From Nemertoderma westbladi (taxonomy: Eukaryota > Animalia > Xenacoelomorpha), in assembly GCA_032718475.1 (NCBI GenBank), contig JAUCBJ010007743.1, positions 1 through 39,169 of the forward strand: a stretch of 39,169 bases of DNA. The letters are read 5' to 3'. The notes beneath the pieces were generated by a model. It ran no database searches. It had not been told where the DNA came from and worked only from the letters and a program-made list of their open reading frames with translations. Shown here in pieces: positions 7,639 to 14,399 of the stretch. Position 1 is the first letter of the stretch. Each line of letters opens with the position of its first letter. The translations under genes were made by a program, and so were the position numbers.

Positions 7639-7845
7639 TATTTAGTCGTCCAAGTGTTGGACTGAGGGGGGTGGGATTGAGGGCGAGATGCCCTTCCCCA
7701 CACAAATATAAAAATATAAAAAAAATAATTAAAATAATAGAGAAAGAGAGAAAGGGAAAGGAAAGTAGTACATAGTAAGTATGCAGTAAGTAAGTAGGCA
7801 GATAGAAGTTAGTAAGAGTTAGTAGTAAGAGGGTACATAGTACCG

Positions 7846-9189
7846 TTAGTTAGTTAGTTAGTTAGTTAGTTAGTTAGTTAGTTAGTTAGTTAGTTAGTTA
7901 GTTAGTTAGTTAGTTAGTTAGTTAGTTAGTTAGTTAGTTAGTTAGTTAGTTAGTTAGTTAGTTAGTTAGTTAGTTAGTTAGTTAGTTAGTTAGTTAGTTA
8001 GTTAGTTAGTTAGTTAGTTAGTTAGTTAGTTAGTTAGTTAGTTAGTTAGTTAGTTAGTTAGTTAGTTAGTTAGTTAGTTAGTTAGTTAGTTAGTTAGTTA
8101 GTTAGTTAGTTAGTTAGTTAGTTAGTTAGTTAGTTAGTTAGTTAGTTAGTTAGTTAGTTAGTTAGTTAGTTAGTTAGTTAGTTAGTTAGTTAGTTAGTTA
8201 GTTAGTTAGTTAGTTAGTTAGTTAGTTAGTTAGTTAGTTAGTTAGTTAGTTAGTTAGTTAGTTAGTTAGTTAGTTAGTTAGTTAGTTAGTTAGTTAGTTA
8301 GTTAGTTAGTTAGTTAGTTAGTTAGTTAGTTAGTTAGTTAGTTAGTTAGTTAGTTAGTTAGTTAGTTAGTTAGTTAGTTAGTTAGTTAGTTAGTTAGTTA
8401 GTTAGTTAGTTAGTTAGTTAGTTAGTTAGTTAGTTAGTTAGTTAGTTAGTTAGTTAGTTAGTTAGTTAGTTAGTTAGTTAGTTAGTTAGTTAGTTAGTTA
8501 GTTAGTTAGTTAGTTAGTTAGTTAGTTAGTTAGTTAGTTAGTTAGTTAGTTAGTTAGTTAGTTAGTTAGTTAGTTAGTTAGTTAGTTAGTTAGTTAGTTA
8601 GTTAGTTAGTTAGTTAGTTAGTTAGTTAGTTAGTTAGTTAGTTAGTTAGTTAGTTAGTTAGTTAGTTAGTTAGTTAGTTAGTTAGTTAGTTAGTTAGTTA
8701 GTTAGTTAGTTAGTTAGTTAGTTAGTTAGTTAGTTAGTTAGTTAGTTAGTTAGTTAGTTAGTTAGTTAGTTAGTTAGTTAGTTAGTTAGTTAGTTAGTTA
8801 GTTAGTTAGTTAGTTAGTTAGTTAGTTAGTTAGTTAGTTAGTTAGTTAGTTAGTTAGTTAGTTAGTTAGTTAGTTAGTTAGTTAGTTAGTTAGTTAGTTA
8901 GTTAGTTAGTTAGTTAGTTAGTTAGTTAGTTAGTTAGTTAGTTAGTTAGTTAGTTAGTTAGTTAGTTAGTTAGTTAGTTAGTTAGTTAGTTAGTTAGTTA
9001 GTTAGTTAGTTAGTTAGTTAGTTAGTTAGTTAGTTAGTTAGTTAGTTAGTTAGTTAGTTAGTTAGTTAGTTAGTTAGTTAGTTAGTTAGTTAGTTAGTTA
9101 GTTAGTTAGTTAGTTAGTTAGTTAGTTAGTTAGTTAGTTAGTTAGTTAGTTAGTTAGTTAGTTAGTTAGTTAGTTAGTTAGTTAGTTAG
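7846..9189 (+). repeat. (TTAG)336 perfect microsatellite
   Basis: 1344 bp uninterrupted TTAG in constant phase, lying between array units 1 and 2. Confidence 0.98.
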
Positions 9190-9596
9190 TAGTAAGAGGG
9201 TACGTAGTACCGTTAGTAGGAGAGTTAGTTAGTAGTAAGAGGGTACGTAGTACCGTTAGTTGGAGAGTTAGTTAGTAGTAAGAGGGTACGTAGTACCGCT
9301 AGTGGAGTGAGTTAGTTAGTTAGTTAGTAAGAGGGTACGTAGTACCGGTGGTAAAAGTTAGTGGAGTTAGAGGAGTTAGTAAGAGGGTACGTAGTACCGG
9401 TAGTAAGAGTAGTGGAGTAGTAAAAGGGTACATAGTACCGGTTAGTAAGAGTTAGAAGAGTTAATAGTAAGAGGGTACGTAGTACCGGTTAGTGAGAGTT
9501 AGTGGAGTTAGTTAGTAAGAGGGTACATAGTACCGGTTAGTAAGAGTTAGAAGAGTTAGTAGTAAGAGGGTACATAGTACCGGTTAGTAAGAGTTA

Positions 9597-11288: not shown

Positions 11289-13699
11289 ATGGCGGAGAAA
11301 CTTGTTCGAAAGAGAAAGGCGGAGTTGGGAGGAAAGGAGATACTGGTGGATTTCACCGAGAGGCATCCGGAAGAGAAGACGAGGGGATATTACGAGCGGT
11401 TAGAGAGGGGTCACAAAGCGCGAGCGCTACAGGACCATTTCAGGGAGGTGCACGAACAGCGGCTGGTCGGGACCTATGGGACACCGTCGCTAGACAATGC
11501 GATCTTCGAGCATTTCCACTACGTGGTGAAGGGAGACGAGGCGAAGTTCAGGATACTGAAGTATCCAAAGGAACCACCGAGAAAGGACTGGAACAGGTTC
11601 GTAGAGTCCGTCCCGTTCGAGGAGGGGCTCGGTGGGGTAGGCCAGAACCATACTCCTACATTTGGCCGCGCCAAATGGGGACATTCTCCTATTCAACCTG
11701 GGAACATATGGGAGGAAGAATGGGCCAAAGTTGAACCGGTTGCCAAAGGCGGTGCAAACCCTAGTAAGAGAGAAGTCGACTATAAAGGTGGGATCGGCGA
11801 TCCGCGACGATGCAGAGAGAATCATCGGTCCGGACACCCCCAACCTCCTGGACATGCAGACGGTCTACATGGCTATGACAGCACCAGACGGGTTGGGACT
11901 AGTAGAGAACGCAGGCCATTGTGGAGCGGTGGTGATGGGCCAGCTAATGGGGCTCGTGTGTCACAAACCAATGGACTGGGGTAAATTCAGAGAGGAGTAC
12001 GGAGCGGAGTTAGTGAACTCGCTGAAGTGGGGAGCAAGACCGGGGAAGCAAGAGGTGTATCAATTCCGGAGAGGAGCGATAAAGGTATATCAGAAGCGAT
12101 ATATCCTGCAGGAGGACTGGATAATGATAGGTTTGCTAAACCTATTCATGACCGTGGTTATCGAGAGAGAACCAACGGAGAACCAACAAATATCTAGTAG
12201 ACGGAGAGGTGGATACGCCATATCAGAGGTGGGAGCAGCTAGAGGCGGATAGACAAGAGCCGAAGCGATTGGAAGAAATCGCTAGGCGAGAAAGGAGGGA
12301 GGCAGAAGAAAGGGAGGAGGAAGCAAGAAGGGAGAGCTATGGATTCGAGGAACAGGCGGCCTTAGATGAGCTACACTGGACATCAGGAAGTTCGGGCGAG
12401 TCTCTAGGGCGAGAATTGGGGTGGACGGTGGGATCACCGAAACAGTCGACATCGGGATTGCAGACGACGCCCATACCAGCGGGCGCCAAGGGCGACTTCA
12501 CACAGAGCAGGCCAGGGGAGCTAGAAGGATGGAGAATCACGGGCGAGAGCCAAGGTGGGAAGGGTCATGGTGGATCCACCGGGATACCGGGATTGGAGCC
12601 ACTCGCAGAGGGGGGCGAAAATGATGATGAGTTCGGAGAGATGCCGTCCATCGAGAGAATCGGCCACTCGGACACGGACTTGGTTGGCGGGAGGGTGGTG
12701 ACGGCCAGCGGGGCGAGGGCCTTCTGGGATAGACCCGGCAAGTGGGCCTGGGTGCATGAGGAGCCGGCAATGGATTTCGCAGGGAGCACCATCAGGTTGG
12801 GCGAGCAACTGGGGATGGCACCACGGGTAGTATTCGGAGAGACGATGCCCGGGCAGGGCGAGGAGATAGACGTGGACAGGGACGCTAACGTCCAGAAGTT
12901 CGCTTACCAGCGACTCCACAGACTGAGGAGATTGCTTGGGACGAAAGACGACGTGGGGTGGGAGGCATTGGTACTCGGCTGCGATTACTGCGGGAGGCAG
13001 ACTCACCAGGAAAGGAGCTGCTTGTACCGATTCCAGAAAGGGACTAGTTGTCTCTACTGCCGCGAGTCGAGCCACAGGATGGGGGCATGTCCACGGTTGC
13101 ACAACCGGTGTTCTAAGTGCAACTTCTGGGGGCACTACGGACGCCAGTGCGACTGGATGGATGATGAGGAGAAGTTTAGGATCTTCGAGGAGTGGGCCGA
13201 TGTTGGCGCCATGACCCGACAGCGGATGAAGGCCCAGGAATTCCAGTGGGGCTTCTTTAATATCAACCAGGAGGCCCATCTGGAGATTATTAAACGGAGA
13301 CTTCCGTTTACCTATCAGGAGGTGTCAACGGCGGCGTCGTATGCCAGAGTGATAAATAAGCAGAGGTATTTGGACAGGTGGACGCCACAGAACCGAGGAG
13401 AGTTCAGAGATTTCTTGGCGGAGCATGTGCCGCGGGCAATGAAAGTGATCCTATGGGACGCCACTAGGGGGAAACAACAGGGCCATTCGGAGGGGCCACC
13501 CGCGAAGCGATACCGGGAGCTGATAACACCAGCACCCAAGGAGTCGACGACGGGAATCAGTAGAGAGGTGACGGCGAGGGTCAGGAGCCTGAAAGGGGAT
13601 AAGACCAAGGGAGCGGCAGTGGCCAGGAAACGACCGAGGGAGGAGGACGACAGAGGGAAGGAGTTGAGATGGTTCCCAAAGTCGGGTGGAACGAACTAG
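11289..13699 (+). pseudogene. Accessory ORF of the BEL/Pao element (~800 codons when two frameshifts are repaired): DEDDy-like 3'-5' exonuclease, coiled coil/linker, three CCHC zinc knuckles, basic tail
   Basis: Overlapping ORFs 11178-11984, 11662-12252, 12209-13699 in successive frames. ILLHLAAPNGDILLFNL...LPKAVQTLVREKSTIKVGSAIRDDAERI...LLDMQ...WGARP...YQKRYILQED resembles RNase D/WRN exonucleases. CDYCGRQTHQERSC, CLYCRESSHRMGAC and CSKCNFWGHYGRQC are all CX2CX4HX4C. Confidence 0.7.
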
Positions 13700-14390
13700 A
13701 ACTTGGGTGTGGAGATGCCTGGAAGTCGCCACATGTGAAGTAATACGAACTCCTAAGTGCAAATTTAATTAAAAGTGCAAATTAGTATGTACGTATGTAA
13801 TAATCATTAGTTTAGTCAAATAGCAAATATAATCAAAGTAAGTACTATAGTCATATAACCTTTTCCAATTAGCTACTGGGACTGGGGACCAATTGACTAT
13901 GACAGGACGAGACATTAGACGACTTCACACTTCTTGAGTGCGATGGCACAGGAGGGGAGGGTGAGGCTCGTCAGGAGAGAGTGGGTTGAGATAGGGGTTG
14001 AGTACAGAACGTGAGGGGAGAGTGCGGGTGCAATTCAAGTGTGGGGGGGGGGGAAGTAAGAGGTAGAGCGAGGGACAGGGAGGTCCGAGAGTTAGAGTGG
14101 AAGAGAACTTAGAGTCAGTTAGAGCGGAGTTAGAGTGGAGAGAGTGTTGGGGAAACAAAAATTGTGTGAGAGAAACCCACAATTCGCCCGACACGGGACG
14201 CCAGATGTCTTGGTGCAAGATAGATGAAGTTGCACCAAGACAGGGTAGCGATATCATGCCCATAGGGAGCGGCCTGGAAAGCCGGCTCCGAGAAAAAATA
14301 ACTCCACCCCACACCCGATAGTAGATCGGGTTCCAGCGGAATTGATGCGCACTTGAGGTAGATGCTATCTTCTCACCGGGAAGATAGCAT

Positions 14391-14399
14391 GGGGGGGAG
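14391..14399 (+). promoter_or_regulatory. Polypurine tract of the BEL/Pao element
   Basis: GGGGGGGAG directly before TGT at 14400. Confidence 0.7.

Follow-up and report, generated by a model that had tools for sequence, protein, structure and literature searches.

The 39,169-nucleotide stretch of Nemertoderma westbladi DNA analyzed here (the window; contig JAUCBJ010007743.1 of assembly GCA_032718475.1) contains a decayed BEL/Pao retrotransposon that carries, between pol and its 3′ long terminal repeat (LTR), an additional gene (open reading frame 3 [ORF3]) predicted to encode a 3′-5′ exonuclease joined to three CCHC zinc knuckles. ORF3 is a real, lineage-wide trait of one BEL/Pao lineage. A lineage-wide exonuclease-knuckle gene appears to be new for BEL/Pao elements, the nearest precedent being the DEDDy exonuclease ORFs of rotifer retroelements. 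Our preferred reading, to which we assign a probability of about 0.55, is that members of this lineage have a third gene with its own promoter, whose product would act in trans on RNA against small-RNA silencing, and that the hairpin repeat array preceding ORF3 in the window is no required partner of it.

Pfam domains for gag (DUF1759), protease, reverse transcriptase (RT), Peptidase_A17, and integrase (rve, H2C2, and DUF5641) follow one another from 2322 to 7638, and it is this order that identifies the element as BEL/Pao. The polypurine tract (PPT) GGGGGGGAG at 14391-14399 is followed by a TG...CA-type 3′ LTR, and the alignment of a 681-nt contig from sequencing run X5 of the host species starts exactly at 14400. 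Stops and frameshifts interrupt gag-pol in this copy; the window begins within gag, and the 5′ LTR lies outside it. The pol stop, PPT, and LTR recognized in a preliminary description of this DNA are therefore confirmed by the Pfam domains, the TGT...ACA ends, and the X5 contig boundary. The 6,761 bp between the pol stop and the LTR consist of four parts, a microsatellite, a fragment of a long interspersed nuclear element (LINE), the repeat array, and ORF3. The features of the element and of this interval are as follows.

2322-3539, plus strand: capsid part of gag (DUF1759; Pfam E value of 2.5e-10), with broken frames upstream to position 1
3765-5321, plus strand: protease and reverse transcriptase (Asp_protease_2 and RVT_1, weak Pfam matches), with a premature stop at the end
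5529-6248, plus strand: Pao RNase H region (Peptidase_A17; Pfam E value of 1.6e-21)
6316-7638, plus strand: integrase (H2C2, rve, and DUF5641; Pfam), including the pol stop at 7638
7648-7675, plus strand: small hairpin and G-rich run directly after pol (folding), common to host-species subfamilies
7828-7845, plus strand: first repeat core of the array (folding and sequence; a contig bridges 7675-7836)
7845-9190, no strand: perfect (GTTA)336 microsatellite of 1,346 bp (100% matches in Tandem Repeats Finder [TRF])
9191-9594, plus strand: repeat block 1, 9 units of 41 to 52 nt with core GGTAC-N3-GTACC and C-free spacers (repeat search)
9595-10524, minus strand: 3′ end of a 5′-truncated non-LTR retrotransposon, 930 bp, with RVT_1 and DUF6451 (Pfam) and a (TAG)n tail
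10525-10774, plus strand: repeat block 2, 4 units and 1 degenerate unit (repeat search)
10801-11288, plus strand: ORF3 leader, likely the promoter region, with CACGTG at 10885 and 10917 and a TATA-like word at 11204
11289-11640, plus strand: N-terminal part of ORF3, first frame, for which the family profile search detected no homolog
11641-12250, plus strand: ORF3 exonuclease domain of DEDDy fold, second frame (family profile E values of 4.7e-14 and 2e-17; ESM Atlas, 0.93 to DNA_pol_A_exo1 clusters)
12152-13699, plus strand: third frame of ORF3, with acidic linker, three CCHC knuckles (about 12977-13160), helical region FE..AD.G..T...WGF, and stop (56 homologs; alignment; family profile E value of 1.8e-27)
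14362-14399, plus strand: 13-bp hairpin and then the PPT (z-scores of -2.9 as RNA and -5.6 as DNA)
14400-14958, plus strand: 3′ LTR (TGT...ACA, with AATAAA near the end; sequence and X5 contig boundary)

To place ORF3 among other elements, metagenomes were searched with a DNA pattern of its Cys/His motif, which returned at least 120 loci of an estimated 370 or so, 80 of them with flanking sequence. Sixty-nine of these 80 belong to the ORF3 family, and a BEL integrase lies upstream on the same strand in 41 of the 69 and on the opposite strand in none. Sorted by the length of upstream sequence, an integrase was found in 36/43 loci with at least 2.5 kb, 28/31 with at least 4 kb, and 27/29 with at least 5 kb. 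All nine upstream polyproteins scanned contained Peptidase_A17 and DUF5641, and the intact examples have a single gag-pol frame of 2,100 to 2,380 amino acids followed by an ORF3 frame of about 690 to 1,280 codons. In locus L028, paired 797-bp repeats (95% identity) enclose both gag-pol and ORF3, while six loci (L007, L011, L040, L049, L065, and L075) show the order ORF3, PPT, LTR, primer binding site, and gag. Locus L026, with an LTR pair (79 to 92% alike) around a gag fragment and ORF3, a PPT, and no pol, is likely a nonautonomous element that retained ORF3. The suggestion that the exonuclease-knuckle ORF is encoded by the element was thus borne out by these 41 loci of other genomes, in which it follows a BEL/Pao integrase, by the position between LTRs, and by the purifying selection described below. 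The viral database IMG/VR yielded one out-of-frame match to the motif, no relative of the integrase, and no array core.

In the window, ORF3 occupies 11289-13699 on the plus strand in three frames, with breaks near 11640 and at 12150-12250; the exonuclease/zinc-knuckle gene previously noticed on this strand is therefore present, but it is not one long open frame. A phmmer search with the third frame found 56 proteins at E values of up to 0.001, many of them 470 to 1,025 amino acids long; in these, a region resembling an exonuclease at the N terminus is combined with the same Cys/His module at the C terminus. Of the 56, 48 match the pattern H-x4-C-x2-[LM]H-x2-C-x2-C-x3-GH. Since a hidden Markov model (HMM) built from the N termini of 18 homologs matches the middle frame of the window (E value of 4.7e-14), the second and third frames belong to one gene. 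Three C-x2-C-x4-H-x4-C motifs are found in the third frame; across 51 sequences, the Cys/His columns show either no variation or a conservation of at least 90%, to which the choice of sequences by this motif contributes, and the Pfam zf-CCHC matches in the knuckle region are weak. As to the catalytic residues of the window copy, the ExoII aspartate is retained and ExoIII reads Y-I-L-Q-E-D; the ExoI site coincides with the frame break and cannot be read. A 39-sequence profile matched EXD2 (E value of 5.5e-12), the Trypanosoma brucei RNase D TbRND (0.0013), and WRN. In the AlphaFold model of the intact ORF3 of locus L020, most of the exonuclease region has a predicted local distance difference test (pLDDT) score above 85, and a Foldseek search with this model retrieved EXD2 (6e-6) and the small-RNA trimmer Nibbler (1e-4) as well as TbRND, Rrp6, and Egalitarian, a dead DEDD member that acts as an RNA binder. 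As modeled, the exonuclease domain has the RNase H-like DnaQ fold.

Other searches with ORF3 were less informative. The model of the zinc module (pLDDT of 72) gave no Foldseek match at an E value of 0.001, a best Z of 3.4 with VIA, and a best ESM Atlas value of 0.85. Pfam returned no match for the three window frames or for 11 related ORF3s, the single exonuclease frame had no match among PDB sequences, and word-index protein searches found none with the window frames and eight unnamed proteins with the alignment. A cluster look-up of 10 ORF3 homologs produced one name, "hypothetical protein." Long variants of ORF3 (1,330 to 1,590 codons) occur in L006, L017, L052, and L065, with N-terminal extensions that have no Pfam match.

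Extra exonuclease genes behind pol have been described in bdelloid rotifers. According to the accessible text of PMC5408684, the Juno and Vesta LTR retrotransposons and the Athena/Terminon elements carry a DEDDy ORF3, for which roles in RNA 3′-end processing or silencing were proposed; that text names Pao once and zinc knuckles or CCHC never. The likeness is that in both cases pol is followed by an additional ORF for an RNase D-like DEDDy exonuclease. Compared by description, the rotifer elements belong to a different retrotransposon group, whereas the exonuclease described here is part of a protein that also contains three CCHC knuckles and a conserved helical region, follows the integrase tree, includes a pseudo-nuclease clade, and likely has an internal promoter with a TATA box and an initiator (Inr). 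The extra ORFs known from BEL/Pao are env-like, for instance the F-like gene of roo and a Chuviridae-like glycoprotein in mosquitoes, as the accessible part of PMC13524379 reports; they are likewise extra ORFs, but the one found here matches nuclease folds and not fusogens. The word "exonuclease" does not occur in the accessible text of PMC13524379 and PMC2774666, and our literature search found no BEL/Pao element with an exonuclease ORF, with subscription journals, Repbase entries, and supplements, any of which could hold one, lying outside its reach. Among cellular proteins, TbRND (PDB 7C45) is also a DEDDy exonuclease with C-terminal CCHC fingers and was retrieved by both profile and fold searches; its zinc fingers boost RNA binding and cleavage in the 3′ trimming of small RNAs (PMC7797062, accessible text). 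However, it is cellular, U-preferring, and only about 12% identical, and the shared architecture is probably convergent; ORF3 also has a long acidic linker and the extra helical region. EXD2, Nibbler, the WRN exonuclease, and Egalitarian match the exonuclease domain best in both sequence and structure, but they are host genes without this knuckle module and only 12 to 17% identical.

Trees were computed for 25 loci and the window, leaving out loci with a broken ORF3 or without an exonuclease match. Integrase and exonuclease distances are correlated (Mantel rho of 0.78, reached by 0 of 2,000 permutations), and of the 16 supported integrase splits, 13 recur in the exonuclease tree and 12 in the zinc module tree. 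The ratio of nonsynonymous to synonymous substitution rates (dN/dS) in 10 close pairs was roughly 0.13 to 0.54 for the exonuclease and 0.07 to 0.36 for the zinc module, values that indicate purifying selection on ORF3. When the 29 BEL-linked exonuclease domains were aligned, all five catalytic residues (ExoI D-x-E, ExoII D, and ExoIII Y-x3-D) were present in 12, both ExoI acids were absent in 11, and 6 were partial or truncated. Catalytic state follows the integrase tree, with DEDDy intact in 11/11 members of one clade (96/99) and ExoI lost in 9/9 members of another (100/100). By its residues, then, the lineage comprises one clade with an intact catalytic site and another of pseudo-nucleases.

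Among 32 relatives with an exonuclease match, the start of this domain lies 140 to 1,060 bp after the pol stop in 29, and the other three have long N-terminal extensions. Nine of 36 gaps between pol and ORF3 contain a sense TATA box (mean of 0.7 and maximum of 3 in 200 shuffles), compared with 3 on the reverse strand (0.6 in shuffles), and CACGTG is found in 9 gaps against 2.9 expected. An initiator-like word, YAKT, lies 32 to 35 nt downstream of the TATA box in all nine cases (background of 0.06 per site), a distance 2 to 4 nt above the textbook spacing. We infer from these motifs that TATA and Inr drive a separate ORF3 mRNA.

A counter-silencing role is favored because the nearest folds include Nibbler and because dead DEDD proteins serve in piRNA (PIWI-interacting RNA) biogenesis; EXD1 and Maelstrom, dead members of this superfamily, act as RNA binders (PMC5408684, accessible text). 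ORF3 would be translated from a separate mRNA made from its internal promoter, and its knuckles would hold single-stranded RNA in such a way that 3′ ends reach the exonuclease, as in TbRND. The targets may be the 3′ ends or precursors of piRNAs or small interfering RNAs (siRNAs), which active members would trim and dead members would bind or sequester. Acting in trans on RNA, the protein could thereby shield the element from host small-RNA silencing. For the counter-silencing role taken by itself, we would put the odds at even or slightly below. A more ambitious version, in which a widespread and hitherto undescribed BEL/Pao lineage encodes a separately promoted suppressor of piRNA/siRNA silencing, one clade degrading small RNAs and another acting as an EXD1/Egalitarian-like pseudo-nuclease decoy, while the array of the window family evolved as a binding platform, appears doubtful.

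Several points weigh against the preferred reading. The silencing role is argued by analogy. The interval searched for the Inr was chosen with the data already in hand, and the nine loci represent about five independent lineages; a strict TATA box is absent from 27 of the 36 gaps, and the TATA-like word of the window (11204) differs in most host-species contigs. Some loci (L014, L010/L038, L006, L061, and L066) have no integrase upstream. In L006 the sequence probably ends too soon, while the ORF3 of L014, at about 8600-10400, is decayed, is preceded by a TATA+TCAGT promoter, and has no BEL sequence detected in the 10 kb before it; it may be a copy that was stranded or retroposed. One series of eight assemblies supplied 38 of the 41 linked loci, and since the scan selected on ORF3, relatives that lost it would be invisible. 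With dS near saturation, the dN/dS values are rough. Finally, the window integrase forms a long branch (best identity of 34%), and therefore its closest relatives lie outside the sample.

The preliminary description had joined the hairpin array and ORF3 into one module, in which the array would supply, for example, an RNA scaffold or decoy, with ORF3 as the nuclease or binding protein cognate to it. The array does exist, with 14 cores and 1 degenerate core in units of 41 to 63 nt, each core being able to fold into a hairpin of 5 bp with 3 nt in the loop (-5.2 kcal/mol as RNA and -2.7 as DNA), but 1,346 bp of what had been described as a repeat-spacer array are microsatellite. The spacers are not unique either: the 11 uninterrupted ones, composed of AGT, AGTT, and GAG words, are near-copies with a single C in 330 nt, and a CRISPR-like reading was rejected for this reason. 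The purine-rich bias on the same strand was confirmed (0.66 to 0.67 in the array, 0.63 in ORF3, and 0.60 in gag-pol). In the host-species runs, the array has a depth similar in magnitude to those of pol and ORF3, a contig from X3 with a depth of 79 spans 7675-7836, and the post-pol region is connected with the array start through four distinct joints, so that in its own species the array looks element-borne; no run contig spans pol, array, ORF3, and LTR, pol and LTR having been queried separately, which leaves a direct pol-LTR joint not visible. A scaffold would also be in keeping with the near confinement of C to the cores, with unstructured G/A/U linkers between them, and with block z-scores of -1.6 to -3.6. 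However, TRF found an array between pol and ORF3 in 0/36 BEL-linked relatives and the core motif is present in 0/121 loci; in the relatives sampled, the ORF travels with BEL/Pao pol between LTRs but without the array. The short stems show no compensatory change among the 14 cores, and the variants (loop in five units, stem in one) are both CpG-type transitions. As RNA the blocks pair mainly between units, Rfam gave no match at an E value of 0.5, and a tRNA search gave none; a conserved structured RNA is not what these results describe. Plant Retand elements, moreover, commonly contain unexplained family-specific tandem arrays in the interval from pol to the 3′ LTR; they also have a long region and an extra ORF there but are Ty3/Gypsy, with antisense TRP28 ORFs and no exonuclease (PMC11963269, accessible text). 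In the preferred reading, the array is not a required partner of ORF3, being absent from the relatives sampled, and the single functional module is improbable; most likely the array arose by tandem growth of a family-specific repeat where the ORF3 promoter lies and is either a DNA control element or neutral.

If ORF3 does not counter silencing, it might be an adaptor or chaperone for the RNA of the element, used in ribonucleoprotein assembly, 3′-end protection, or Egalitarian-like transport into the germ cell. An entire clade retains the fold under constraint without ExoI residues, Egalitarian-BicD complexes are among the fold matches (one with an I-factor signal), the knuckles weakly resemble nucleocapsid, Air2, and Lin28 types, and L026 combines gag and ORF3 without pol. 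Against this, at least 12 relatives retain all DEDDy residues, the Egalitarian match is common to the whole superfamily, and nucleocapsid function is normally supplied by gag; we regard the adaptor role as unlikely, if worth keeping in view. A role of the exonuclease in reverse transcription, either in proofreading, as previously suggested, or in the processing of primers or ends, would agree with the WRN/EXD2/Pol-A-type DEDDy fold and the strict linkage to pol, but ORF3 is not fused to RT and likely has its own promoter, one clade is catalytically dead in 9/9 members although its gag-pol frames, where sampled, are open (L036, L046, and L077), and CCHC knuckles suggest RNA, which makes the proofreading role quite improbable. 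That ORF3 is a captured host gene carried as a passenger without benefit to the element is very improbable and already largely refuted by selection and cophylogeny: frames of about 690 to 1,550 codons are open, dN/dS is well below 1, and the ORF3 trees agree with those of integrase even between elements that share only about 30% identity. What speaks for a passenger are the few loci without an upstream BEL integrase (L014 within 10 kb) and the rotifer env- and GDSL-like ORF3s, whose tests showed no clear departure from neutrality (PMC5408684, accessible text). The preferred reading remains a third gene acting against small-RNA silencing.

Of the supposed ~6.8-kb cargo, the extra gene between pol and LTR stands, but microsatellite and LINE fragment, 34% of it, are probably later accidents of the window copy. 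The microsatellite has grown from the first array spacer and is likely copy-specific or an assembly expansion; a telomeric reading was rejected, the unit being TTAG and not TTAGG. The LINE fragment, which we take to be RTE-like, has a purine fraction of 0.48. In run X1 its summed contig depth is 1.2 to 1.5 million, compared with 15 to 25 thousand in the array bins, 11 to 39 thousand in the ORF3 bins (11173-13536), and 11 to 67 thousand in the integrase, summed depths not being equal to copy numbers. Between 178 and 210 contigs per run (X1 to X3) diverge at 9595 into unrelated flanks, and other copies extend beyond 10524. From the depth contrast and the flanks, it is an independent, abundant element inserted within one repeat unit, and it was rejected as cargo.

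Some further observations concern the ends of the element. Loose ends lie at 7641, and the post-pol region is the highest depth bin of the stretch in the host-species runs; within the element, depth is highest there and at 14128-14521. The G-run after the hairpin at 7648-7675 is a possible second PPT. Strong hairpins are found at 7648-7675, at 14206-14242 in the 3′ untranslated region (UTR), and at 14362-14390 just before the PPT (z-scores of about -3 to -6), and AGTTAG-type words resembling the array spacers occur at 14090-14145 in the 3′ UTR. The remainder of the window contains the following features, of which the IFRD and dehydrogenase/reductase genes and the Ty3/Gypsy-type element fit an animal genome.

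20762-21625 and 24499-25017: two coding pieces of a host IFRD (interferon-related developmental regulator) gene
30371-34211, minus strand: GC-rich Ty3/Gypsy-type element with DUF7041 gag, RT, RNase H, and integrase
34589-35392: short-chain dehydrogenase/reductase in an uninterrupted frame (adh_short_C2, E value of 3e-65)
22445-22722, 27704-28121, and 28734-28929: arrays of the 12-nt GCAGACAGTGGT in both orientations
15379-15492 and 16444-16632: 40-nt ACTGTA/ACTGAA arrays
25240-25407: (TGGGC)34
36200-39169: 146-nt satellite with a conserved CCCTCTAGCGG core

Beyond the established position of ORF3, its co-inheritance with the integrase, its selection, its fold, and its active and dead clades, the significance of these elements is that an accessory gene of the enzyme type, which shows signs of having its own promoter, has been kept by a lineage through deep divergence, and that nature provides an active and a dead clade side by side. 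Intact natural copies with and without catalytic residues make directly testable what exonuclease cargo does in retroelements, a question raised by the rotifer report. ORF3 could reveal a transposon-encoded counter-defense against small-RNA silencing in animals.

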